27,026 nucleotides of DNA from a virus (lineage: Duplodnaviria > Heunggongvirae > Uroviricota > Caudoviricetes), in the IMG/VR virus record IMGVR_UViG_2690316099_000006, one strand, 5' to 3'. Positions 1 to 27,026 of this stretch are shown here, in pieces (within the stretch, counting starts at the first letter, position 1; each line of letters begins with the position of its first letter). The notes under the pieces were generated by a model. It was not told the DNA's origin. It worked only from the letters and a program-made list of their open reading frames with translations, and did not search any database. The translations under genes and the position numbers were made by a program.

Positions 1-27
1 AAACCTCGGTTTACAGGAAACGGTAAA
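1..27 (+). other. Gin/Pin-family crossover site copy (gix/pix-like), truncated by window edge
   Basis: AAACCTCGGTTTACAGGAAACGGTAAA at the start of tail-fibre cassette 1. Positions 3-27 are the exact reverse complement of 4534-4558. Resembles the Mu gix half-site as I recall it (..AAACCTCGGTTTACAGGAA). Confidence 0.5.
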
Positions 28-1118
28 CAAGGCTGGTAACGCCGTGCAAAAAAATGGCGATACGTTGTCCGGTGGACTTACTTTTGAAAACGACTCAATC
101 CTTGCCTGGATTCGAAATACTGACTGGGCAAAGATTGGGTTTAAAAATAATTCGGATGCAGACACCGATTCCTACATGTGGTTTGAAACAGGCAACAACG
201 GCAATGAATATTTCAAATGGAGACACCGCATCATTGGCACCCGGCCTAAAGACCTGATGAATCTTAAATGGAATGCTTTGTCTGTTCTTGTTGAAGCCCT
301 TTTCAGCAGTGAAGTGAAAATATCGACAGTCAATGCACTGAGGATATTTAATTCATCTTTTGGTGCCATTTTTCGTCGTTCTGAAGAATGCCTGCATATC
401 ATCCCTACACGAGAGAATGAAGGGGAAAATGGTAATATAGGGCCACTACGCCCCTTTACGCTTAATCTCAGAACTGGCCGGATAAGCATGGGGCATGGTC
501 TTGATGTTACAGGGGATATATTTGCAAACCGTTTTGNNNNNNNNNNNNNNNNNNNNNNNNNNNNNNNNNNNNNNNNNNNNNNNNNNNNNNNNNNNNNNNN
601 NNNNNNNNNNNNNNNNNNNNNNNNNNNNNNNNNNNNNNNNNNNNNNNNNNNNNNNNNNNNNNNNNNNNNNNNNNNNNNNNNNNNNNNNNNNNNNNNNNNN
701 NNNNNNNNNNNNNNNNNNNNNNNNNNNNNNNNNNNNNNNNNNNNNNNNNNNNNNNNNNNNNNNNNNNNNNNNNNNNNNNNNNNNNNNNNNNNNNNNNNNN
801 NNNNNNNNNNNNNNNNNNNNNNNNNNNNNNNNNNNNNNNNNNNNNNNNNNNNNNNNNNNNNNNNNNNNNNNNNNNNNNNNNNNNNNNNNNNNNNNNNNNN
901 NNNNNNNNNNNNNNNNNNNNNNNNNNNNNNNNNNNNNNNNNNNNNNNNNNNNNNNNNNNNNNNAAACATGGAATTTTCAGTGCCCGTCAGGCTATGTACT
1001 GACGGGGATTAACGTACAGGATACCGGAAAAAACTCTGCCGATAATATTGCAGGCGTTCATTACAGGCCAGTGCAAAAGTATATAAATGGCACTTGGTAT
1101 AATGTGGCGAGTATTTAA
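2..1118 (+). CDS. H: Tail fibre protein C-terminal variable cassette 1 (P2 gpH C-terminal homologue); 5-prime end outside window, interior 537-963 masked
   Basis: Frame from position 2 translates [47 protein letters not shown]..., matching the P2 H region after residue ~400. It ends ...[17 protein letters not shown] at stop 1116-1118, like the P2 H C-terminus. Confidence 0.8.
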
Positions 1119-1119
1119 T

Positions 1120-1647
1120 ATGATGCACTTAAAGAACATAAAAGCAGGTAATGCTAAAACAGTGGAGCAGTATGAGTTAACAAAGAAGCACGGAGTCATC
1201 TGGCTTTACTCTGAGGACGGAAAAAACTGGTATGAGGAAGTGAAGAACTTTCAGCCAGACACAATAAAGATTGTTTACGATGCAAATAATATTATTGTCG
1301 CCATCACCAAAGATGCCTCCACGCTTAACCCTGAAGGTTATAGCGTCGTTGAGGTTCCTGATATTACAGCTAATCGTCGTGCTGATGATTCCGGTAAGTG
1401 GATGTTTAAGGACGGAGCTGTGGTTAAACGGATTTATACGGCTGACGAACAGCAACAACAGGCCGAATCACAAAAGGCCGCATTGCTTTCCGAAGCTGAA
1501 TCAGTCATCCAGCCGCTGGAACGCGCTGTCAGGCTGAATATGGCGACGGACGAGGAACGCACACGACTGGAAGCATGGGAACGCTACAGTGTTCTGGTCA
1601 GCCGTGTGGATACGGCAAAGCCAGAATGGCCACAAAAGCCTGAGTAA
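1120..1647 (+). CDS. G: Tail fibre assembly chaperone (P2 gpG-like) for cassette 1
   Basis: [23 protein letters not shown]...[52 protein letters not shown]... is near-identical to P2 G as recalled. Start sits 2 nt after the cassette stop. Confidence 0.9.
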
Positions 1648-1675: not shown

Positions 1676-2209
1676 TCATTCTGGTTGTTCGGGAAACGTT
1701 ACTGGCAGGCTGGAGGTGTCTGTGGATTCGACCTTCTGCGCATAGAGCATCCACTCGGTTAATTTTTGTTTATTCTCGTCGGAAATAATGCCCAGCCGTA
1801 GCTGTGAGTCCCATAGCTGGGTTTTATCCCTGACGAGCTGTAGCAGGCTTTGCTTTTCATTTTCCGCTTGTTGCCTCTGCTCTTCCCCGGTATAAGTTCG
1901 CTTTATCACTACGCCATCTTTGAACATCCATTTACCTGAAATATCAGCCCGGCGATTTGCTGTAATATCAGGAACCTCAACGACGCTTGCGCCTTCCGGA
2001 TTAATTGCTGAAACATCCTTTTCAATACAAATAATAACGCCGTTGTGGTCATAGACCATTTTCAACGTATCAGGCTGAAAGTTCTTTTGTTCCTCATACC
2101 AGTTTTTCCCATCCTCTGTATAAAGCCATTTGATGTTAAATTGTTTCGTTAGCTGGTATTGCTCTTTTGTTTCAGGATTACCAGCAGAAATGTTTTTTAA
2201 GTGCATCAT
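1676..2209 (-). CDS. Tail fibre assembly chaperone (second, divergent allele) for cassette 2
   Basis: MMHLKNISAGNPETKEQYQLTKQ...[41 protein letters not shown]... has the same N-terminal and core motifs as G with a divergent C-terminus. Convergent with G. Confidence 0.9.
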   Translation of the reverse strand: MMHLKNISAGNPETKEQYQLTKQFNIKWLYTEDGKNWYEEQKNFQPDTLKMVYDHNGVIICIEKDVSAINPEGASVVEVPDITANRRADISGKWMFKDGVVIKRTYTGEEQRQQAENEKQSLLQLVRDKTQLWDSQLRLGIISDENKQKLTEWMLYAQKVESTDTSSLPVTFPEQPE

Positions 2210-2211
2210 CG

Positions 2212-3748
2212 TTAAATACTCCCCGCGTTATACCACGTCCCATTAATGCAATACTGAATTGGCCTTGCCTGAGTTGTATCAATTAGTTCATCTCTGTTTG
2301 AGTTAACGGAACCGGTAACAACATAACCTGACCTGTCAGACCATCCGGGACCATTCCATGTCTGAACAGATAACAGACCACCAAGGCGAATACCTGTAAT
2401 AAACCTTGAGTTACATTCTGCCTGCGTATATGCACCAACATCTCCCGCAGAGGGTTTGCGGGTTGTGGTGTAAAACTCTGACCAGTCAGCTTCAAAGCCA
2501 TAACCATCACGCGCTGAACGATAAAAAATACCNNNNNNNNNNNNNNNNNNNNNNNNNNNNNNNNNNNNCCGTTCCTGTAATTCACGCGGAACTGTACAGC
2601 AGGGCAGCTCCCCGTATTCATATTGAAGTGGAGGATTAATGTCGATGCGCCACCAATGTTTGCGTTATAGACCCCGCTATTCCAGTTCCAGCCAACAGCT
2701 TTATCATTTCCGACAGTGCTTCCTGTTTGCCCNNNNNNNNNNNNNNNNNNNNNNNNNNNNNNNNNNNNNNNNNNNNNNNNNNNNNNNNNNNNNNNNNNNN
2801 NNNNNNNNNNNNNNNNNNNNNNNNNNNNNNNNNNNNNNNNNNNNNNNNNNNNNNNNNNNNNNNNNNNNNNNNNNNNNNNNNNNNNNNNNNNNNNNNNNNN
2901 NNNNNNNNNNNNNNNNNNNNNNNNNNNNNNNNNNNNNNNNNNNNNNNNNNNNNNNNNNNNNNNNNNNNNNNNNNNNNNNNNNNNNNNNNNNNNNNNNNNN
3001 NNNNNNNNNNNNNNNNNNNNNNNNNNNNNNNNNNNNNNNNNNNNNNNNNNNNNNNNNNNNNNNNNNNNNNNNNNNNNNNNNNNNNNNNNNNNNNNNNNNN
3101 NNNNNNNNNNNNNNNNNNNNNNNNNNNNNNNNNNNNNNNNNNNNNNNNNNNNNNNNNNNNNNNNNNNNNNNNNNNNNNNNNNNNNNNNNNNNNNNNNNNN
3201 NNNNNNNNNNNNNNNNNNNNNNNNNNNNNNNNNNNNNNNNNNNNNNNNNNNNNNNNNNNNNNNNNNNNNNNNNNNNNNNNNNNNNNNNNNNNNNNNNNNN
3301 NNNNNNNNNNNNNNNNNNNNNNNNNNNNNNNNNNNNNNNNNNNNNNNNNNNNNNNNNNNNNNNNNNNNNNNNNNNNNNNNNNNNNNNNNNNNNNNNNNNN
3401 NNNNNNNNNNNNNNNNNNNNNNNNNNNNNNNNNNNNNNNNNNNNNNNNNNNNNNNNNNNNNNNNNNNNNNNNNNNNNNNNNNNNNNNNNNNNNNNNNNNN
3501 NNNNNNNNNNNNNNNNNNNNNNNNNNNNNNNNNNNNNNNNNNNNNNNNNNNNNNNNNNNNNNNNNNNNNNNNNNNNNNNNNNNNNNNNNNNNNNNNNNNN
3601 NNNNNNNNNNNNNNNNNNNNNNNNNNNNNNNNNNNNATTTTGGCCCCGTGGCTGACAGATATAGCACCTGTTCTCAGATTTATAGCGAATGGCCTTAATG
3701 GGCCGATATTACCGTTTTCGCCTTGTCCTTCAGCCGTCGGAATGAAAT
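2212..3748 (-). CDS. Tail fibre C-terminal variable cassette 2 (inverted, promoterless); upstream limit hidden in mask 3749-4074
   Basis: Hand translation of the minus strand 2532 to 2212 gives ...GYVVTGSVNSNRDELIDTTQARPIQYCINGTWYNAGSI with a stop at 2212-2214. Further upstream, 3637-3748 encodes [36 protein letters not shown], parallel to [27 protein letters not shown] in cassette 1. The reading frame changes across masked blocks. Confidence 0.7.
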
Positions 3749-4076
3749 NNNNNNNNNNNNNNNNNNNNNNNNNNNNNNNNNNNNNNNNNNNNNNNNNNNN
3801 NNNNNNNNNNNNNNNNNNNNNNNNNNNNNNNNNNNNNNNNNNNNNNNNNNNNNNNNNNNNNNNNNNNNNNNNNNNNNNNNNNNNNNNNNNNNNNNNNNNN
3901 NNNNNNNNNNNNNNNNNNNNNNNNNNNNNNNNNNNNNNNNNNNNNNNNNNNNNNNNNNNNNNNNNNNNNNNNNNNNNNNNNNNNNNNNNNNNNNNNNNNN
4001 NNNNNNNNNNNNNNNNNNNNNNNNNNNNNNNNNNNNNNNNNNNNNNNNNNNNNNNNNNNNNNNNNNNNNNNNNNAT

Positions 4077-4155
4077 GAACAAATATTTGAAGATAAATTA
4101 AGCGGAACAAGGACAGGCCGACCTGGATTAAAACGTGCTTTAAAGCGCCTTCAAA
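4077..4155 (+). CDS. Serine DNA invertase (Gin/Pin/Cin/Hin family), visible N-terminal segment only; start estimated near 3996 inside the mask, 3-prime part masked or absent
   Basis: Plus frame gives EQIFEDKLSGTRTGRPGLKRALKRLQ, near-identical to Gin/Pin residues ~28-53 as recalled (EQIFEDKLSGTRTDRPGLKRALKRLQ). Confidence 0.75.
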
Positions 4156-4447
4156 NNNNNNNNNNNNNNNNNNNNNNNNNNNNNNNNNNNNNNNNNNNNN
4201 NNNNNNNNNNNNNNNNNNNNNNNNNNNNNNNNNNNNNNNNNNNNNNNNNNNNNNNNNNNNNNNNNNNNNNNNNNNNNNNNNNNNNNNNNNNNNNNNNNNN
4301 NNNNNNNNNNNNNNNNNNNNNNNNNNNNNNNNNNNNNNNNNNNNNNNNNNNNNNNNNNNNNNNNNNNNNNNNNNNNNNNNNNNNNNNNNNNNNNNNNNNN
4401 NNNNNNNNNNNNNNNNNNNNNNNNNNNNNNNNNNNNNNNNNNNNNNN

Positions 4448-5567
4448 GGCAGGCACCAATATTTTTGGTGAAGGTATCTTTCCCCGGAATATCTGCGCCG
4501 TTCTGGTTTTTCTGTAATGCGCCAGAAGCCTGATTTACCGTTTCCTGTAAACCGAGGTATTCGATAACGGCGGCAACGGTCGATTTCGCAAGAATATCCC
4601 GCCCGACTTTTGTCAGGGTTGCCAGGCTGGCGACATCATTCCCCGTAAAATACGGAAACCTGTCTGCCGCAGTAGCAAGCCCCGCCAGCGCCGTCAGAGT
4701 GGCATCTTTCGGTTGCTTACCCGCAAGCGCGTTAGTCATGGTGGTCGCAAAATTCGGGTCGTTGCCCAGCGCCGCCGCCAGCTCGTTCAGTGTGTTCAGT
4801 GCATCAGGCGAAGAGTCTACAAGTGCGGCAATCGCAGCCATAACGAAAGCCGTGCTTGCGATTTGGGTATTATTCGTTCCCTGTCGCGCAGTTGGTGTTG
4901 TTGGCGTTCCGGTCAGTGCCGGGCTGTTTAATGGGGCTTTCTTGTTCGTTTCATCCATTACTGCCTTAACGGCTTTTGGTGTCGCTGCCAGCGTTTCAGA
5001 CGTGCTGTTGGTGGCGTTGCTGAGCTGGACAAGGCCTTTTGCGGTCAGCGAGGCGTCCGGGTGACGTCGTGACTGTTCATGCTCTTTCAGTTTGTCATCC
5101 ACGTAATTCACTGTGGCCATCACCATGGTGTTATCCACGGTAAGCGCCACAGTGGCAGTGCTGGATACGGTCAGAATGGTGCGAAATGTTTGTGCACGTC
5201 CGGATCCTTCGGCAACGGTTGGCTTGTAACTTTCGGCAGTATTGCCTACCGCGATCAAATCGCCGTGCTCATCAAACACACCAATTTCCCGGATCCAGAA
5301 TCCGCCCGTTTCAGGAGGAATAACCAGCTCCGCAATAATGTGGTTCTGATGTGTTGCGTCCAGGGTGACGCGATTAACGGTATGTCGCCACACCTCATGC
5401 ACAAGACGGGTCTGCTTACTGTCTGGCGTGGGTAAAGTACCGCCGCCGTCACCCACGGCCATATGTGTCAGGCGGACAGGTTTCCCATCTGGCGCGGTTG
5501 CCTGCGCTAATTTTTTTGCACCCGTATCGGTGATAATGGTTTTAAATTTTCGTGTTGTGGTACTCAT
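4448..5567 (-). CDS. H: Tail fibre protein H, N-terminal constant region plus crossover junction; 3-prime end hidden in mask 4156-4447
   Basis: MSTTTRKFKTIITDTGAKKLAQATAPDGKPVRLTHMAVGDGGG...SETLAATPKAVKAVMDETNKKAPLNSPALTGTPTTPTARQGTNNTQIA...[14 protein letters not shown] matches P2 H closely. After ETVN it diverges into QASGALQKNQNGADIPGKDTFTKNIGAC. Confidence 0.85.
4542..4567 (-). other. Gin/Pin-family crossover site (gix/pix-like) inside H at the constant/variable junction
   Basis: Plus strand TTCCTGTAAACCGAGGTATTCGATAA; minus strand reads TTATCGAATACCTCGGTTTACAGGAA, an imperfect 26-bp dyad close to the gix consensus as I recall it. It encodes VIEYLGLQE. Inverted relative to the copy at 1-27. 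Confidence 0.6.
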
Positions 5568-7921: not shown

Positions 7922-8458
7922 CGTACAGCCTCCGCAATCCGGCCCAGCACCGTGTTATAAATCAGGCGCTCATCTGCCTGGCTGATACCCAGCAGCTCAC
8001 GTACCGGGTAATCGGTGAAAATGCCCGGCGCAACCTGATCGCGCTCACCGAACTGATGAACGCGTGCAATACGTGCGGCCACGCCGCTGTAACCCACCGT
8101 CACACCGGAAGCATCTGCACGGGCTTTCAGGTAGCGGGCGGTGCGCAGTTTTACGAACATGGAGACGCGCCTGGTGCTGTCCTGGTTGATGCGCCGGGTG
8201 CGTATTTCCAGAAAACGGTCGATGTCATCCCGGTAAAACGTGCGGATATTGTTTTTATCCTCATCCCACCCGGTGATGGTTCGCCCGTATTTCCCCGTGT
8301 CGTGATGCCAGTTTTTCAGCGTGCGTGCTTCGTTATTCCAGATAAAGCGAATGCGCTCCTGTATCCGGGTTACGCGGCGTCTGCGTGGTGTCCATGCGGT
8401 CCCGTCCGGCGCTTTCTGTGACCGGATACGCGCCTGCTGGGCGCGGCGTAAATCCTGT
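7918..8458 (-). CDS. S: Tail completion / virion morphogenesis protein (P2 gpS-like); 5-prime end in mask, where gene R is presumably also hidden
   Basis: Minus frame is open from the mask edge to the stop at 7918. Position between V and the lysis genes matches P2 S/R. Family assignment is by synteny more than sequence. Confidence 0.5.
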
Positions 8459-9243
8459 NNNNNNNNNNNNNNNNNNNNNNNNNNNNNNNNNNNNNNNNNN
8501 NNNNNNNNNNNNNNNNNNNNNNNNNNNNNNNNNNNNNNNNNNNNNNNNNNNNNNNNNNNNNNNNNNNNNNNNNNNNNNNNNNNNNNNNNNNNNNNNNNNN
8601 NNNNNNNNNNNNNNNNNNNNNNNNNNNNNNNNNNNNNNNNNNNNNNNNNNNNNNNNNNNNNNNNNNNNNNNNNNNNNNNNNNNNNNNNNNNNNNNNNNNN
8701 NNNNNNNNNNNNNNNNNNNNNNNNNNNNNNNNNNNNNNNNNNNNNNNNNNNNNNNNNNNNNNNNNNNNNNNNNNNNNNNNNNNNNNNNNNNNNNNNNNNN
8801 NNNNNNNNNNNNNNNNNNNNNNNNNNNNNNNNNNNNNNNNNNNNNNNNNNNNNNNNNNNNNNNNNNNNNNNNNNNNNNNNNNNNNNNNNNNNNNNNNNNN
8901 NNNNNNNNNNNNNNNNNNNNNNNNNNNNNNNNNNNNNNNNNNNNNNNNNNNNNNNNNNNNNNNNNNNNNNNNNNNNNNNNNNNNNNNNNNNNNNNNNNNN
9001 NNNNNNNNNNNNNNNNNNNNNNNNNNNNNNNNNNNNNNNNNNNNNNNNNNNNNNNNNNNNNNNNNNNNNNNNNNNNNNNNNNNNNNNNNNNNNNNNNNNN
9101 NNNNNNNNNNNNNNNNNNNNNNNNNNNNNNNNNNNNNNNNNNNNNNNNNNNNNNNNNNNNNNNNNNNNNNNNNNNNNNNNNNNNNNNNNNNNNNNNNNNN
9201 NNNNNNNNNNNNNNNNNNNNNNNNNNTGGCCCGCTTATCGGCG

Positions 9244-9717
9244 TTACAGGTTTCCAGTGCGTCCATGAGGCTGTCGCTCCATATCCCGATGTTTCCCCAT
9301 GATGGCGTCACCGGAAACGGCGGGGGAAGTACGGGGGCGGTCAGCCCTTCCGGGATGAAACGGAACGACGGCGGCGGCGCGGACGCGTTCTGCGTGCTGG
9401 TGCAACCGCTCAGTAAAGCGAGCGTCAGGAACAGCGCGGGCACATGCATCTGTCGTGATATCGTTGCGTAGCTGTTCACGTCGGATTTCCCCTTCCTGTT
9501 GTCGGTTCTGGCGCGCTGTCATGACGTCACGCAGTACACCGGATGCGGTGCTGATGATGGTGCCGGCCTCTTTCAGGGTCCGGCTGTAATCGTCCAGTTG
9601 CGCCTGTGTATAACGGTTGTGTCCGTCTTCCTGCCCCAGTCTGAATGTCTGCCAGAGTGTTATGGTCAGCAGCGTGAGGACGGTCAGTGCCATCATCAGG
9701 ATGTAACGCACTTTCAT
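9244..9717 (-). CDS. lysB: Inner-membrane spanin (Rz/LysB-like); 3-prime end runs into mask
   Basis: N-terminal TM segment ILMMALTVLTLLTITLW followed by a charged, likely coiled-coil region. Start overlaps the endolysin stop. Confidence 0.65.
   Translation of the reverse strand: MKVRYILMMALTVLTLLTITLWQTFRLGQEDGHNRYTQAQLDDYSRTLKEAGTIISTASGVLRDVMTARQNRQQEGEIRREQLRNDITTDACARAVPDARFTERLHQHAERVRAAAVVPFHPGRADRPRTSPAVSGDAIMGKHRDMERQPHGRTGNL
9247..9479 (-). CDS. lysC: Outer-membrane spanin lipoprotein (Rz1/LysC-like), visible N-terminal part; 3-prime end masked
   Basis: MNSYATISRQMHVPALFLTLALLSGCTSTQNASAPPPSF... has a signal peptide with an LSGC lipobox and a proline-rich body. It starts inside the i-spanin gene in another frame and extends past it. 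Confidence 0.6.
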
Positions 9718-10736: not shown

Positions 10737-11308
10737 CAGCACAACTCCGCAAAGATTCGCGGGCGGCACAGAATGTCAGAGATGGCCCAGCTCACATCGC
10801 GCCACAAATCCGATGTCTGTATATCCAGTGCGTCCGCCCGGCGGTCGCCCTTGTCCGTTGTGTCCGCATCGCGGTAACGCTCCAGAATCAGGGCGCGTGT
10901 GGCGGTATAAACAGCATTGCGCCAGTGCCAGAGATTGACGCTTTCTCCGTTAATTACAGGTGCCGGAACATCGGCCAGCGTCTGATGGCCNNNNNNNNNN
11001 NNNNNNNNNNNNNNNNNNNNNNNNNNNNNNNNNNNNNNNNNNNNNNNNNNNNNNNNNNNNNNNNNNNNNNNNNNNNNNNNNNNNNNNNNNNNNNNNNNNN
11101 NNNNNNNNNNNNNNNNNNNNNNNNNNNNNNNNNNNNNNNNNNNNNNNNNNNNNNNNNNNNNNNNNNNNNNNNNNNNNNNNNNNNNNNNNNNNNNNNNNNN
11201 NNNNNNNNNNNNNNNNNNNNNNNNNNNNNNNNNNNNNNNNNNNNNNNNNNNNNNNNNNNNNNNNNNNNNNNNNNNNNNNNNNNNNNNNNNNNNNNNNNNN
11301 NNNNNCAT
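10736..11308 (-). CDS. L: Head completion protein L (interior 10991-11305 masked)
   Basis: Visible C-terminal half plus position between M and X. Start is ATG at 11308 or GTG at 11317. Confidence 0.6.
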   Translation of the reverse strand: MXXXXXXXXXXXXXXXXXXXXXXXXXXXXXXXXXXXXXXXXXXXXXXXXXXXXXXXXXXXXXXXXXXXXXXXXXXXXXXXXXXXXXXXXXXXXXXXXXXXXXXXXXGHQTLADVPAPVINGESVNLWHWRNAVYTATRALILERYRDADTTDKGDRRADALDIQTSDLWRDVSWAISDILCRPRIFAELC

Positions 11309-14322: not shown

Positions 14323-16215
14323 ATGATTCAGGACGCTTTTGTGCGCCAGCGTGCGCGGCAACTTTACTGGCAGGGTTATCCGCCCGCAGAAATATCACGT
14401 CTGATGGGAATAAACCCGAACACGATTTATGCGTGGAAAAAACGCGACCAGTGGGATGAAACGCCACCCGTGCAGCGTGTCACGCAGTCCATCGATGCGC
14501 GCCTCATCCAGCTTACTGAAAAACAGAATAAAACAGGTGGTGACTTTAAGGAAATAGACCTGCTGACCCGGCAGCTTAAAAAACTGCATGATGGCCAGCC
14601 GGATGCGACGGCCACAGGAAAGAAAGGCCGGGCGAAAAAACTCAAAAATCATTTCACNNNNNNNNNNNNNNNNNNNNNNNNNNNNNNNNNNNNNNNNNNN
14701 NNNNNNNNNNNNNNNNNNNNNNNNNNNNTCCCTGACGCTTTGCAGGGAAGCCGGGATACGTAACAGGATGATCCTGAAATCCCGACANNNNNNNNNNNNN
14801 NNNNNNNNNNNNNNNNNNNNNNNNNNNNNNNNNNNNNNNNNNNNNNNNNNNNNNNNNNNNNNNNNNNNNNNNNNNNNNNNNNNNNNNNNNNNNNNNNNNN
14901 NNNNNNNNNNNNNNNNNNNNNNNNNNNNNNNNNNNNNNNNNNNNNNNNNNNNNNNNNNNNNNNNNNNNNNNNNNNNNNNNNNNNNNNNNNNNNNNNNNNN
15001 NNNNNNNNNNNNNNNNNNNNNNNNNNNNNNNNNNNNNNNNNNNNNNNNNNNNNNNNNNNNNNNNNNNNNNNNNNNNNNNNNNNNNNNNNNNNNNNNNNNN
15101 NNNNNNNNNNNNNNNNNNNNNNNNNNNNNNNNNNNNNNNNNNNNNNNNNNNNNNNNNNNNNNNNNNNNNNNNNNNNNNNNNNNNNNNNNNNNNNNNNNNN
15201 NNNNNNNNNNNNNNNNNNNNNNNNNNNNNNNNNNNNNNNNNNNNNNNNNNNNNNNNNNNNNNNNNNNNNNNNNNNNNNNNNNNNNNNNNNNNNNNNNNNN
15301 NNNNNNNNNNNNNNNNNNNNNNNNNNNNNNNNNNNNNACCGCTGGAACGAGAAAAAGGCCGCGCATAAACGCCAGCGTTTTTCTGTGGACTGGAAAACGC
15401 TGCATAACGGGCTTATCTGCCCTGACCGGACGTGGCGGCAAATTGTCACGCTGGAAGATGTGGTTAATCACGGCTGGAAACACACCGATATTGATGAAAT
15501 TCGTGATGAAAACACCGAAGACGAGTTCCGCAATCTCTATATGTGTGAGTTTGTCCGCGAAGGGGAATCGGCATTTAACCTGAATATCCTGATTGGCTGC
15601 GGTGTTGACGGATACGACGACTGGAAAGACTGGAAACCCTTTGCCCCCCGCCCGATGGGGAATCGTCCGGTATGGATTGGGTATGACGCAAACGGCAGCA
15701 GTGGTAACGGCGACAGCGGCGCTGTGTCCGTGGTGGTTCCTCCGGCTGTTCCTGGTGGTCGTTTCAGAACGGTGGAGACGCGACGCGTTCAGGGGCTGGA
15801 ATTTGAAGAGCAGGCCAGAGTTATTGAAGAGTTCACGTATCGCTACAACGTGGAACACATCGGCATTGATGCGACGGGCGGGCACGGGGATGCCGTCTAT
15901 CAGATAGTGAAACGGTTTTTTCCCGCCGCCATCCCTTACACCTTCACGCTGTCATCAAAACGGTCGCTGGTACTGAAAATGCTGCAAATAATGCGTGCCG
16001 GGCGGTGGGAATACGATCGCGCCGAACGCGAGCTGGTTGCGGCCTTTAACGCCGTGCGTAAGGTGAAAACACCGGGCGGTTTTATCACTTACGAAACGGA
16101 CCGCGCGAGGGGGATCAGCCACGGCGACCTTGCGTGGGCAACCATGCTTGCTGTCATTAACGAACCGATTGGCGGCGAAGGAGAAAACGAGCGTTTCACG
16201 GTTATGGAGTTCTGA
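14323..16215 (+). CDS. P: Terminase ATPase (large) subunit P (two internal masked blocks)
   Basis: N-terminus MIQDAFVRQRARQLYWQGYPPAEISRLMGINPNTIYAWKKRDQWDETPPVQRVTQSIDARLIQLTEKQNKTGGDFKEIDLL matches P2 P. C-terminal half is visible 15338-16215. GGGGGAG lies upstream of the ATG. Confidence 0.85.
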
Positions 16216-18590: not shown

Positions 18591-19260
18591 GGATACGCGA
18601 TTTCGCAGCGTTCGGAAAATCNNNNNNNNNNNNNNNNNNNNNNNNNNNNNNNNNNNNNNNNNNNNNNNNNNNNNNNNNNNNNNNNNNNNNNNNNNNNNNN
18701 NNNNNNNNNNNNNNNNNNNNNNNNNNNNNNNNNNNNNNNNNNNNNNNNNNNNNNNNNNNNNNNNNNNNNNNNNNNNNNNNNNNNNNNNNNNNNNNNNNNN
18801 NNNNNNNNNNNNNNNNNNNNNNNNNNNNNNNNNNNNNNNNNNNNNNNNNNNNNNNNNNNNNNNNNNNNNNNNNNNNNNNNNNNNNNNNNNNNNNNNNNNN
18901 NNNNNNNNNNNNNNNNNNNNNNNNNNNNNNNNNNNNNNNNNNNNNNNNNNNNNNNNNNNNNNNNNNNNNNNNNNNNNNNNNNNNNNNNNNNNNNNNNNNN
19001 NNNNNNNNNNNNNNNNNNNNNNNNNNNNNNNNNNNNNNNNNNNNNNNNNNNNNNNNNNNNNNNNNNNNNNNNNNNNNNNNNNNNNNNNNNNNNNNNNNNN
19101 NNNNNNNNNNNNNNNNNNNNNNNNNNNNNNNNNNNNNNNNNNNNNNNNNNNNNNNNNNNNNNNNNNNNNNNNNNNNNNNNNNNNNNNNNNNNNNNNNNNN
19201 NNNNNNNNNNNNNNNNNNNNNNNNNNNNNNNNNNNNNNNNNNNNNNNNNNNNNNNNNNNN

Positions 19261-20319: not shown

Positions 20320-23097
20320 TTTCCACTGGTCAGGCCACCCCGCAGCAGGTCTGCTTTGCGGCGGGCGCGTTCAGTGGTTTCACTGATTCTCTGTGCGTGC
20401 TCTGCGTCGCGGATGGCGCGCAGCATGTCAGAAAGCACGGTAACGGGTGTTTTCATGGTGTTCTGGTCCTGCTGAAGTGTGGATGCCAGGCGTGCGGCGG
20501 CTTCAGGGTCTGATGCCCCCAGCTGTGTCAGATAGCTGGCGACCGGGTTATGGCGGATCTCCGTGCTGCTTACGCCATGATTACGGCTCAGGCGCTGCCA
20601 GAGCTGCGTGATTCGGCTGTCCGGGCGGGTATCCGGTTTGCGTACAATTTCAAATCCCTGCGGTGCAATGATGCTGCCGTCAACGTACAGACTGCCGCCC
20701 CGTAACAGGTGCTGCATCTGTTGTTCACCGATATGCAGGCCGAGAGATTCAGCAGACTCCCGCCATTCTTTAGCGAGTAATTCGTGGTTATCAGGCAAAG
20801 GCCGCTGCTGTTTGCGGCTCTGTGTCCAGCTCTGCATTTCATCACTGCTGTTTTTTGCCTGTTTGTCACGAAGCGAACGCATCAGCGCCCGGCGTTCGTG
20901 CCGTTTCAGTGAGCGCATCCATTCATCCACATCAACGCCGTCAGGGAGCTGCGGCCACGGTGCTGGCCGTTCTTCCGGCTGTTCTGTCCCGTTGTTGTCC
21001 GTTTCCTGTACACGGGGACAGTTATTGCCACGAGTCCAAGGGGCGGCAGGGCCGCCCTGAAGGTCAAAACCATTTTCGCGGGCGCTGTCTTCCGCTTCCG
21101 GTTTGCGTCTTACCAGCTTCCAGTTATCCGGATGCGTGCACACACGGGAGGATTCCCCGATGAGTGGTGACCAGATCCCGTAAATCTGTACGCTCTGTTC
21201 GCCGTAATCGTTCAGCTCATCGGCGAGGTCGTAGGCGGTGCGAATCAGGTAGTCTTTGCGTGGAACAAGTACGCCGCCCTGTTTCTCTATGTAGGTGGCA
21301 AAACATCCGGCATCAGCGGCGGCAAGAACCGCATCCATTGCGTCATCCTTCAGCCGTTGCGGGCCTTCCGGGTTGCGTGCCATCTGGCTGGCAAGGCGGC
21401 GCAGTTCACGCCATACCTGGCGGGAGGGGATGCCAAAGAACTGGAACTGGCGGACCCGGNNNNNNNNNNNNNNNNNNNNNNNNNNNNNNNNCCCAGCCGA
21501 TGGCGCGTTCCACGCTCTCGGCCATTGATTTTCCGGTTTCGTGGTCAACGCGTGGCTTGCCCGTTTTCGGGTCGATGCCATCCACGGCGCGGCTGTCCAG
21601 GTTTTTCCCGATGTAGGTGGCGATGTAGCTGGTTGGCGTGCCTTTTGAGCCGTCTACATACTCCGCCTTAAAGCGCGGAGTTATGTCATCGCCCAGCTCG
21701 TGACGATCTTCCTGAATGGCAATATCGCGGGTGTGGGACACAATGGTGTCGATTTCTTCCGGATGAGCAAAGACCATCATATGCCAGTGCACGGTGCCGT
21801 CATGGTGAGGCTCCGCCGTGCGGATGCCATACCAGCGCAGGCCGTCGCGGTTCAGTTTTTTGCGGACCGTCGCAAAAAACGTGTTAACCAGGTAATCGCT
21901 GGAGTCGCGCATTGTGGCCCCGTTCCATTTGGGATTCGGATGACCGTTCTCCGTTGTGGCGTGGTATTTTGACGGGCAGGTGACAGTCAGAAACACCGCT
22001 TTGTCGCCACGGGCTTCGGCCAGAAGTTCCAGCCCCTTCATGGTGGCCATCATTTCTGCCTTACGGTGAACCGGGTTACTTACTCCCGCGTAATACACCG
22101 TCTCGAGATCAATCGTGAACCCGTCTTCATTTTCCAGCATGAAACTTTTCAGGAAATCGCGTGTTTTCTCGCGCTGTGCGCGAAACTCGCTTAACGCGTC
22201 CTGGCTCAGATAGGGCGATGTTTTTCTGGAAACCAGACAGGCGGCGCGAAGTTGTTCTTCTCTCCACTCGCAACGTAACAGCCACAGTTTGCGTTTCCAC
22301 CATTCCGCACAGGTCAGGCGAAGGATTGCGCCCGGCAGCAGTTCTGTGTCCGGTTCGTGCCTCCGGTCTTTGTCTGTTGTCAGTGCGTCATAATGCGGAG
22401 GCATGGCGTGTAAGTGTAACGCCATGCGGGCCAGCATCTGATACGCCTTCAGCGTTACATCCATGGTCAGCTCGCCATCAGTCGCGCCAAAACCATCGCA
22501 GAGTTTTTCGAAGGTGCTGCTGAACATCGCCGCCGTCATGGTGGCCAGCGTCTGTATCTGGTGTTTGTTGAGTTGCGGCAGGTAAAGCAAATCGTCCAGG
22601 CGTTCACGTCCGGCAAGGGAGCGATAACCCGGTGTCAGCCAGTGTCCGTCAGTGCGATCCAGACGTTCGAATATTTTGCGCAGGGTTCCGCGTGCATAGC
22701 GTTCCGCCTGCCAGCTCTTTTTGCCTTTCCGGCGATCGGCTTCCTGTTTTTTGCGCAGGAAGGAGAGGTGGCGAATAAGCGGATCGCGCAGATAGGACGG
22801 CAGCAGGCGCAGCGAGGCCATGGCTTCATCCACCGCGCCGCGTGCCTGTTTTCTGGCGTCTCCTGCCAGTGTGATGGTTTTGTCCTGTTTTTCCTGTGCG
22901 TCCAGGCTTTTATTAATCAGGTTGCCCAGTGGCGTGGCGGAGAACGCCGCATCAGCCATTTCCTGGCGGCGCTCGTTCTCTGCCCGGTGGGCATCCAGCC
23001 AGGAGGAAAGCGCGGATTCAGGAGCGGGGATCCCCGTTCCTTCACGCCCCACTGCGTGGCGCGGTTGTTGCCAGTCCCTGATGTACTCTGCCGTCAT
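20253..23097 (-). CDS. A: Replication initiator (rolling-circle endonuclease) A; frame appears to change across masked block 21460-21491
   Basis: N-terminal 535 aa (21492-23097) has ...MKGLELLAEARGDKAVFLTVTCPSKYH...GTVHWHMMVF...TPTSYIATYIGKNL... typical of P2 gpA. Downstream of the 32-nt mask an open ~400-aa frame continues to 20253 in a different frame. Confidence 0.75.
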
Positions 23098-23469: not shown

Positions 23470-24020
23470 TGCGGCAATCCTCTTGTTACAGATGTGCGAA
23501 GGCCTCCCNNNNNNNNNNNNNNNNNNNNNNNNNNNNNNNNNNNNNNNNNNNNNNNNNNNNNNNNNNNNNNNNNNNNNNNNNNNNNNNNNNNNNNNNNNNN
23601 NNNNNNNNNNNNNNNNNNNNNNNNNNNNNNNNNNNNNNNNNNNNNNNNNNNNNNNNNNNNNNNNNNNNNNNNNNNNNNNNNNNNNNNNNNNNNNNNNNNN
23701 NNNNNNNNNNNNNNNNNNNNNNNNNNNNNNNNNNNNNNNNNNNNNNNNNNNNNNNNNNNNNNNNNNNNNNNNNNNNNNNNNNNNNNNNNNNNNNNNNNNN
23801 NNNNNNNNNNNNNNGTTAGTGGGTTGCTACACCCAAACGGCATCAGGTTTACCTGATAAGAAAAGCGACCGCCTGTTTTGCGCTCTTTTCTTGTGACTAA
23901 ACCGCTGCGCCAGAGACGGCGTAGCTCCGCATTAATGGTTGTGGTTGGTGTATTCAGTGCTGCGGCGATTTCTCCACTGCTACAACCCGGATTGGCAGCG
24001 ATGTAGTCCAGAATGGTCAT
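23466..24020 (-). CDS. Hypothetical protein with N-terminal winged-helix-like segment; interior 23519-23814 masked
   Basis: MTILDYIAANPGCSSGEIAAALNTPTTTINAELRRLWRSGLVTRKER... looks like a wHTH. Length and frame through the mask are unverified. Confidence 0.4.
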   Translation of the reverse strand: MTILDYIAANPGCSSGEIAAALNTPTTTINAELRRLWRSGLVTRKERKTGGRFSYQVNLMPFGCSNPLXXXXXXXXXXXXXXXXXXXXXXXXXXXXXXXXXXXXXXXXXXXXXXXXXXXXXXXXXXXXXXXXXXXXXXXXXXXXXXXXXXXXXXXXXXXXXXXXXXXXXXXGGLRTSVTRGLPQ

Positions 24021-26056: not shown

Positions 26057-27026
26057 ATGAGCATAAAATCAATTCCGGGAGGGTATCTTCTTGACATGCG
26101 TCCTGAGGGGCGTAAAGGCAAACGCATTCGCAAAAAATTTAAAACGAAATCGGATGCAGTTTTATATGAGCGGTGGGTGCTGGCGCAACAGCATAACAAT
26201 GAGTGGAAAGGAAACTCCATTGATCGCCGTCCGCTGTCAGTGCTTATTGACTTGTGGTGGAAATACCACGGCCAGCTAATGAAGTCAGGGCATAACACGC
26301 GCCTTAAATTGCTGCGCTTGAGTGAGGCAATGGATGACCCGTGCGTGCATAAACTTAATACAACGATGCTCACCGAGCTACGTGTGTCCAGGATAGAGCA
26401 GGGGATACAGCCCAGCACCATAAATCGAGAGATTGGGGCGTTAAGCGCGATGTTTACCGCACTCATCTCATCCGGCCATTTTCTTAACGATAACCCCGTT
26501 CAAGGCCTTAAAGGAATGAAGGTTAACGAGCGTGAAATGGGATATCTGAGTAAGTCTGAATGTGTTCAGTTGCTGGATGCACTGGCTGAAAATCCCGATG
26601 AACGGCTGGCCGTCGAAATCCTTCTGTCGACCGGGGCGCGATGGGGCGAGGTAGCGGCACTGGAGCAGCGCCGTGTTCTTCATTGTCGAATCACNNNNNN
26701 NNNNNNNNNNNNNNNNNNNNNNNNNNNNNNNNNNNNNNNNNNNNNNNNNNNNNNNNNNNNNNNNNNNNNNNNNNNNNNNNNNNNNNNNNNNNNNNNNNNN
26801 NNNNNNNNNNNNNNNNNNNNNNNNNNNNNNNNNNNNNNNNNNNNNNNNNNNNNNNNNNNNNNNNNNNNNNNNNNNNNNNNNNNNNNNNNNNNNNNNNNNN
26901 NNNNNNNNNNNNNNNNNNNNNNNNNNNNNNNNNNNNNNNNNNNNNNNNNNNNNNNNNNNNNNNNNNNNNNNNNNNNNNNNNNNNNNNNNNNNNNNNNNNN
27001 NNNNNNNNNNNGCTTCAGAAAATTCT
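26057..27026 (+). CDS. int: Tyrosine integrase (P2 Int-like), 5-prime part; runs through mask 26695-27011 and off the window edge
   Basis: Not in the ORF track (no stop in window). Hand translation from ATG 26057: MSIKSIPGGYLLDMRPEGRKGKRIRKKFKTKSDAVLYERW...DDPCVHKLNT...QGIQPSTINREIGALSAMFTALI...LSTGARWGEVAALE..., closely parallel to P2 Int (MAIKKLDDGRYEVDIRPTGRNGKRIRRKF...NDPCAF...QGIKPSSINRDL...FTALI...LSTGARWGEAARLK). Confidence 0.85.
   Translation, partial: MSIKSIPGGYLLDMRPEGRKGKRIRKKFKTKSDAVLYERWVLAQQHNNEWKGNSIDRRPLSVLIDLWWKYHGQLMKSGHNTRLKLLRLSEAMDDPCVHKLNTTMLTELRVSRIEQGIQPSTINREIGALSAMFTALISSGHFLNDNPVQGLKGMKVNEREMGYLSKSECVQLLDALAENPDERLAVEILLSTGARWGEVAALEQRRVLHCRIXXXXXXXXXXXXXXXXXXXXXXXXXXXXXXXXXXXXXXXXXXXXXXXXXXXXXXXXXXXXXXXXXXXXXXXXXXXXXXXXXXXXXXXXXXXXXXXXXXXXXXXXXXXFRKF

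Follow-up and report, generated by a model that had tools for sequence, protein, structure and literature searches.

The tail-fibre switches closest to the locus described here are the G segment of Mu with its invertase Gin, the C segment of P1 with Cin and the P segment of e14 with Pin. In these systems the constant 5' part of the fibre gene ends in a 26-bp crossover site, and two opposed variable cassettes follow, each with its own assembly chaperone; the same layout is found in the window analyzed here, a stretch of 27,026 nucleotides from a virus of the Caudoviricetes (IMG/VR record IMGVR_UViG_2690316099_000006). Their invertase is encoded outside the segment, beside the distal site, which is also where it is found in the relatives of the window. 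Both Hin and Gin have an enhancer within the 5' part of the invertase gene. For Hin, the enhancer stands approximately 100 bp from a hix site (PMC3798978).

The window corresponds to a P2-like prophage in which H, I, J, W, V, S, R, lysis, capsid, terminase, gpA and integrase are laid out from approximately 4.5 kb rightward, and in which the tail-fibre inversion module forms the left end. The features of this module are given below by window position; positions and distances across the runs of N in the window are nominal only.

1-45 (-): crossover site at the left end of the invertible segment (core TTCCTGTAAACCGAGGT, 3-19), part of an inverted repeat of approximately 45 bp whose partner lies at 4527-4571
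1-1118 (+): Hv1, alternative C-terminal cassette of the tail fibre H, masked at 537-963 and unfused to H in the orientation shown
1120-1647 (+): G1, tail-fibre assembly protein for Hv1, 175 aa (Caudo_TAP, PF02413)
1676-2209 (-): G2, tail-fibre assembly protein for Hv2, 177 aa (Caudo_TAP, PF02413)
2213-2732 (-): C-terminal part of the Hv2 cassette, GQTGSTVGNDKAVGW...INGTWYNAGSI
3637-3748 (-): island i1, N-terminal part of a foreign tail-fibre cassette, matching a lambdoid side-tail-fibre locus
3890-3930 (+): predicted third crossover site, nominal coordinates, masked, placed from relatives of the foreign block
4075-4155 (+): island i2, codons 27-53 of a dead recombinase gene of the Pin/Gin family (rec')
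4448-4541 (-): first 31 codons of the Hv2 cassette, immediately following the crossover site and continuing the reading frame of the constant part of H
4542-4567 (+): right crossover site, 26 bp, gix-type, core at 4542-4558, inside the H reading frame
4560-5567 (-): constant N-terminal part of H, approximately 336 aa, followed on the minus strand by I, J, W and V of the P2-like prophage

The 17-nt core TTCCTGTAAACCGAGGT, which we take to be the core of the Mu gix site, occurs twice in the window, at 3-19 (-) and at 4542-4558 (+), against a chance expectation of 0.02. As in Mu G and P1 C, this pair of sites in inverted orientation flanks the segment, the site at 4542-4558 lies in frame within H, and the two opposed 3' cassettes each have their own chaperone (Hv1/G1 on the plus strand and Hv2/G2 on the minus strand). 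An earlier sequence-only reading of this DNA had deduced from the window start a second junction facing the other way; an inverted core does lie at 3-19. The same reading had rightly taken 4448-4541 for minus-strand tail fibre: this stretch reads ...QASGALQKNQNGADIPGKDTFTKNIGAC, is in frame with the constant part of H and is 100% identical to the related contig L004, to which Hv1 is likewise 100% identical (L004 positions 4970-5505 and from 5845 onward). The orientation shown has H joined to Hv2. Between the two visible parts of Hv2, two islands (3637-3748 and 4075-4155) interrupt the masked positions 2733-4447, leaving three N-runs.

Position 1 of the window coincides with the exact outer edge of the inverted repeat, and draft contigs of relatives (L040, L041 and L042) break there too; a start at the repeat edge fits an origin in a draft assembly.

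Several contigs of E. coli and Shigella (L004, L014, L015 and others) match the visible stretches of the window at 99.9-100% identity, and neither island i1 nor island i2 is present at this position in them. Their H is one continuous protein of 656 aa (H-Hv2). In the 44 loci that were fetched, several of which share a genome, a constant 365 bases separates the 30-nt flank ending at 2732 from the 30-nt flank starting at 4448. The Hv2 unit, which runs from ...ALQKNQNGADIP...KNIGAC... to GQTGSTVG..., keeps a constant 459 nt from GQTGSTVG to the crossover site, more distant copies included, and is unbroken in 52 of the 52 natural copies inspected. A truncated-H variant is ruled out, as the H proteins with 100% identity to the visible 373 residues are all of the continuous 656-aa type or versions of it cut at a contig end. 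The suggestion that the variable stub of H could be a short fragment of a third cassette is, as it was put, likewise unsupported: 4448-4541 is the normal start of Hv2, which in the 44 loci continues into 2732 after 365 bases.

The relatives encode an invertase of their own, a protein of 195 aa with a Resolvase domain (PF00239) and an HTH_7 domain (PF02796), whose residues 1-135 are near-identical to those of Mu Gin. Its gene is located between the left crossover site and gpU, directly left of window position 1, in every relative that has identical flanks. Both segment orientations are present among the relatives, giving either H-Hv2 (656 aa) or H-Hv1 (678 aa). Since both orientations occur and a full-length invertase adjoins the segment on the left, the switch appears to be of the ordinary two-site G-segment type, with its enzyme encoded outside the window. 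The related prophages, with whose intact locus the sequence-only reading had proposed a comparison, speak against the arrangement it proposed: they have an unbroken 656-aa H and their own invertase left of position 1.

The invertase-like sequence inside the window is of another origin. At 4077-4155 (+) it reads EQIFEDKLSGTRTGRPGLKRALKRLQ, and its counterpart in Gin, residues 28-53, reads EQIFEDKLSGTRTDRPGLKRALKRLQ (numbered by alignment to Mu Gin, PDB 4M6F, through the 195-aa invertase of the relatives), a similarity that places it in the Gin/Pin family, as had been recognized from the letters of the window. All 81 visible bases match one widespread recombinase allele (100% identity), present in 17 viral contigs and 8 metagenome contigs, and the 81-mer is found in 399 E. 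coli records at an identity of at least 99%. In all 18 copies whose frame was inspected, this allele reads VLIGYVRVSTNDQ...KRLQKGDALVV and ends in a TGA after codon 60, with decayed sequence next; downstream of the decay lies a C-terminal remnant of a tail-fibre assembly gene, usually with a SAM-dependent methyltransferase gene after it. RefSeq labels the allele as "recombinase family protein, incomplete, missing C-terminus". The GYVRVS motif with the catalytic serine is present in the 18 inspected copies (within VLIGYVRVSTNDQ), and its position in the window falls under the mask at 3749-4074; by position, the start and the catalytic-serine codon would lie under the left mask, and the premature stop (codon 61 in relatives) under the right one.

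An invertase frame of approximately 185-195 aa with a C-terminal HTH was not found: the inspected copies of the allele all stop after codon 60, and among the plus frames of 4448-4640 none is open and none is invertase- or HTH-like, in agreement with the sequence-only reading, which had seen no invertase HTH in any plus frame there. Because the fragment is identical to an allele that stops after codon 60 in 18 of 18 copies, the invertase gene of the window is almost certainly truncated as well. The earlier suggestion of a truncated invertase therefore holds as to the truncation, which is that of a dead allele, and fails both in the spacing argument that led to it and in its assignment to the prophage's own enzyme. 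The rec' fragment is 93.75% identical to the own invertase of the relatives, differing at 5 of 80 bases (six positions counting the first base), and the segment with EQIFEDKLSG is best regarded as a foreign, long-dead copy and not as the prophage's own enzyme. As everything past residue 60 is missing, this remnant would be unable to recombine DNA.

The native home of rec' is the invertible side-tail-fibre locus of a lambdoid prophage, which adjoins trpA in E. coli ST131 (L002 and L020). Island i1 belongs to the same locus, being 99.1% identical to these ST131 loci and 100% identical to L030, L032, L035 and L042, and is absent from L004; it is the start of the cassette that adjoins the crossover site in one orientation of the lambdoid segment. 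In ST131 strain 2/0 and in many other genomes, i1 and i2 have the order and orientation of the window and lie 298 bases apart, compared with 326 N here. The crossover core is located 159 nt upstream of the rec' 81-mer in 24 of the 26 loci carrying an identical 81-mer, and in the eight loci with exact flanks in which the i1 cassette adjoins the crossover site, that site falls inside the 298-nt gap between the islands. From these comparisons, i1 and i2 can be read as one lambdoid block consisting of a cassette start, a crossover site and a dead recombinase, and a third crossover site is predicted upstream of rec' in the window.

In the native locus, the lambdoid segment occurs in opposite orientations beside the same dead allele in ST131 strains 4/1-1 and 2/0 (from the same series, Sweden, with consecutive accessions). 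Since the segment is found in both orientations next to an allele that is dead, these strains imply that another invertase may act on it in trans. The remnant probably persists there as a cis element, that is, as a crossover site with a Fis enhancer in the 5' end of the gene, and would be of modest interest as a site-plus-enhancer module served by invertases encoded elsewhere.

The sequence-only reading had placed the start of the invertase near 3996 and its end near 4550, and had allowed it at most approximately 150 aa. These figures rest on the lengths of the N-runs, which we checked by bridging exact 30-nt flanks on both sides of a run in relatives. Nine runs could be checked in this way, and in none of them (0/9) did the number of N equal the number of hidden bases: runs of 427, 36, 768, 315, 71, 550, 639, 32 and 306 N cover 339, 1, 609, 237, 73, 407, 512, 10 and 142 bases, respectively, so that the N-run exceeds the hidden stretch by -2 to +164 bases. 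For a tenth run, the 326 N between islands i1 and i2, the native lambdoid locus has 298 bases. Under the 36 N at 2533-2568 lies one G, the same in 54 relatives, and the 10-base stretch under the 32-N run is likewise invariant in 14 relatives; the idea that the N-runs are assembly gaps at polymorphic sites is therefore unsupported. The run of 292 N that follows the rec' fragment is estimated to hide approximately 130-295 bases, and a full-length gene would still need 426 (142 codons). The gene is accordingly too long to be complete here, as had been concluded earlier, for a reason other than the one then given.

A small island at 14729-14787, also enclosed between N-runs, sits at its true position when compared with relatives, which suggests that the islands in 2733-4447 probably belong to the source record as well. 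It should be noted that this concerns their presence in the record, and that their position inside Hv2 was addressed by searching for the juxtaposition itself, with the 81-mer sought in the vicinity of H or of the Hv2 start, and i1 in that of the C-terminal part of Hv2. No juxtaposition of i1 or i2 with Hv2 was found in 5,426 complete E. coli genomes, in IMG/VR or in metagenome contigs, nor in 26 long NCBI contigs carrying identical G1 and G2. An exact-match scan with the 81-mer returned only lambdoid loci or mis-joined scaffolds among viral contigs, and only lambdoid loci among metagenome contigs. Scans of genome contigs, one of which used the flank to the left of the window, gave no match. 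At the protein level, a concatenated query against a collection of 5.8 billion clusters retrieved no protein covering both the foreign N-terminal part and the C-terminal part of Hv2. A natural hybrid cassette can be set aside on the same grounds: no protein has both parts, no complete E. coli genome has both within 1.3 kb, and each natural Hv2 unit inspected keeps its usual N-terminal part.

One contig, L032, has the appearance of a natural three-site P2-like prophage, with intact invertase, site, methyltransferase, dead recombinase, site, cassettes, site and H in apparent order. It is made of three contigs joined by single Ns, the first being P2-like prophage at 100% and the middle one coming from the lambdoid locus. 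The scaffold of another sibling genome, L042, is likewise a single-N join of both loci. Since L032 and L042 join the two loci through single Ns, genomes of this lineage evidently carry both, and draft scaffolds appear to mix them at exactly this place.

We therefore favor, as reasonably probable, the reading in which the remnant inside Hv2 is a chimeric join of two look-alike prophage loci, a view suggested by the absence of the juxtaposition elsewhere and by the precedent of the sibling scaffolds. Neither the switch nor the dead recombinase remnant is new, both being common and widely sequenced; the sole unusual element is the position of the remnant inside Hv2, which has no other sequence in its support and is probably an assembly artefact. 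Two further ideas were rejected: that the fragment is the branch of a de Bruijn bubble, as its ends are asymmetric around the mismatches to the paralogue, and that microhomology mediated a crossover or an assembly jump, as none of at least 14 nt was found.

A second reading, which we regard as unlikely though deserving of attention, is that of a real, strain-specific compound switch, in which the lambdoid block (foreign cassette start, crossover site and dead recombinase) has been inserted in Hv2. Such a locus would have three sites, that at 3-19 in one orientation and the hidden one together with 4542-4558 in the other, as a direct pair. In the orientation shown, H would be fused only to a stub of at least 31 codons, a fibre-less state. 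H-Hv1 would come back through inversion between the two outer sites, and an H-hybrid fibre would result if the stretch between the direct sites were deleted; the intact invertase on the left would drive these events. The islands do have the native order, orientation and compatible spacing expected of one inserted block, another small island between masks is authentic, and the block sits in the one locus of the window that is recombinationally related to it, which would fit a site- or homology-driven event; multi-site inversion systems are also known (p15B Min and the R64 shufflon). Against this, a second example is absent from every collection searched, Hv2 is unbroken in 52 of 52 natural copies, and L032, the only apparent three-site P2-like relative, is a scaffold chimera. 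Apart from the crossover site, no identical stretch of 14 nt or longer is common to the inside of Hv2 and the lambdoid locus, and a real insertion would need two illegitimate joints, made with neither homology nor a crossover site. When the known site-specific and homologous routes were worked through, each of them would either separate i1 from i2, which are linked natively, or leave the remnant at the opposite end of the segment.

A third reading takes the fragment for the invertase of this prophage itself, cut short where it stands when a rearrangement joined it to the variable stub of H. The fragment does adjoin the H crossover site, in a space too small for a full-length gene. However, in relatives with 100% identical flanks a full-length invertase of their own stands at the opposite end of the segment; the fragment has the 5 mismatches mentioned to that gene and none to the dead lambdoid allele; and island i1, which belongs to that foreign locus too, is present alongside. 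These points make this reading very improbable. Hardly credible at all is a complete invertase hidden, in no conflict with H, under masks longer than the N counts suggest: the N-runs are demonstrably not to scale, but those checked are at most 2 bases shorter than the stretch they hide and usually longer, the allele is dead in each copy inspected, and the visible plus frames of 4448-4640 contain no invertase C-terminus.

Returning to the chimeric join, the locus is on this view a standard switch of the Mu-G/P1-C type, in which the constant part of H ends in the crossover site at 4542-4567 and the inverted second site lies at 3-19, and in which the 3.1-kb segment carries two opposed cassette-plus-chaperone pairs, Hv1/G1 and Hv2/G2. 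The Gin-like invertase left of position 1 would flip the segment between 3-19 and 4542-4567 with the help of Fis from the host and of an enhancer located in the 5' portion of the invertase gene, and the flip would swap Hv2/G2 for Hv1/G1, presumably changing receptor specificity. The foreign block in Hv2 would represent wrongly joined contigs of two look-alike loci of one genome and, if so mis-joined, would have no function at its position in the window. In relatives, approximately 60 codons of rec' remain, including the catalytic serine, and in the native locus another invertase would act in trans.

These observations call for caution in two respects. First, the lengths of N-runs in windows such as this one are unusable for gene-size arithmetic. 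Second, draft scaffolds readily join invertible tail-fibre loci into chimeras when these loci share crossover sites, as two sibling scaffolds illustrate. If the block were real, the capture of a foreign crossover site and of an enhancer-bearing dead invertase stub would have turned a two-state switch into a three-site one, in which the neighboring intact invertase would drive an additional state, fibre-less or with a hybrid fibre; a real juxtaposition would thus be an example of a two-state switch gaining a third site.

In comparison with the described systems, the window differs from Mu G, P1 C and e14 P in that it belongs to a P2-like prophage, has other cassettes, does not include the invertase and contains a foreign fragment in one cassette. 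The closest match to the foreign block itself is the ST131 lambdoid locus (L002 and L020, with a truncated recombinase pseudogene), where the islands are found at 99-100% identity, in the same order and orientation and at a compatible spacing. There, the block comes after a complete cassette pair and before a tail-fibre-assembly remnant and a methyltransferase gene, whereas in the window it is flanked on both sides by halves of a P2-like Hv2. With p15B Min and the R64 shufflon the locus would share three sites and partial cassettes if the block were real; in contrast to these systems, the window has two visible sites with a third predicted, no relative has three, and the apparent precedent is an assembly artefact. 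Finally, the Hin/H segment of Salmonella has its invertase between the two crossover sites, resembling the picture drawn in the sequence-only reading. However, the internal invertase of Hin is complete and functional, whereas here the copy inside the segment is dead and fragmentary, and the relatives have their working gene outside the segment.

The side-tail-fibre segment of the lambdoid prophage that adjoins trpA in E. coli ST131 is inverted in L002 (ST131 4/1-1) relative to L020 (ST131 2/0), and the recombinase beside it is an identical 60-codon dead remnant in both loci. The presence of both orientations beside the same dead recombinase implies that the inversion would have been catalyzed in trans by a different invertase. 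At L020 5575-6381, and at the corresponding spot in most loci carrying the 81-mer (window 4075-4155, plus strand), which is a piece of the dead allele, the recombinase remnant is fused with what is left of the C-terminal part of a tail-fibre assembly gene. There the fusion is followed on the opposite strand by a gene encoding a class I SAM-dependent methyltransferase, which is apparently cargo.

Two IMG/VR contigs, L032 and L042, are scaffolds in which single N characters, located at 5233 and 10309 in L032 and at 3141 in L042, connect P2-like prophage contigs with contigs from the lambdoid side-tail-fibre locus. These contig joints generate a spurious three-site prophage.

Nine N-runs of the window were compared with relatives that have identical flanks:

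537-963, 2533-2568, 8459-9226, 10991-11305, 14658-14728, 14788-15337, 18622-19260, 21460-21491 and 23509-23814: N-runs compared with relatives

In every run compared, the hidden length differed from the length of the N-run (for example, runs of 36, 306 and 71 N correspond to 1, 142 and 73 bases, respectively), so reading frames and distances that span masks are untrustworthy. At the right end, the final 15 visible bases (27012-27026) had no match in any relative in the 900 nt following the sequence that flanks the final mask on its left. The end of the window is probably host DNA located past the integrase end of the prophage. Further inside, ParM/StbA-like and Plasmid_stab_B genes adjoin the replication gene gpA (window ~18.3-19.6 kb; L014 3401-4676); they form a plasmid-type partition module within a P2-like prophage.

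In L005, from a Shigella-type genome, an IS3-family element (8054-9320) lies within the 26-bp crossover site adjoining the invertase, and the insertion site, checked in this locus, reads TTCCTGTAAACCGAGGTT / IS / GTT TTAGATAA. With this insertion, the fibre should be locked as H-Hv1. The Shigella-type loci L009 and L010 share the gene layout of L005, with the alignment boundary likewise at the crossover core. In further relatives, an IS of the same type sits either within the chaperone gene G2 or in the stretch separating the invertase from Hv1.

To the left of window position 1, relatives carry the tail genes (tube, E, T, and U), with the invertase situated between these genes and the H operon (L004 1-4908). 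In L001, a relative that lacks the switch, the invertase spot holds only a C-terminal HTH remnant. In P2, the tube, E, T, and U genes are co-directional with H, whereas in the relatives their transcription runs toward the H operon and is convergent with it.
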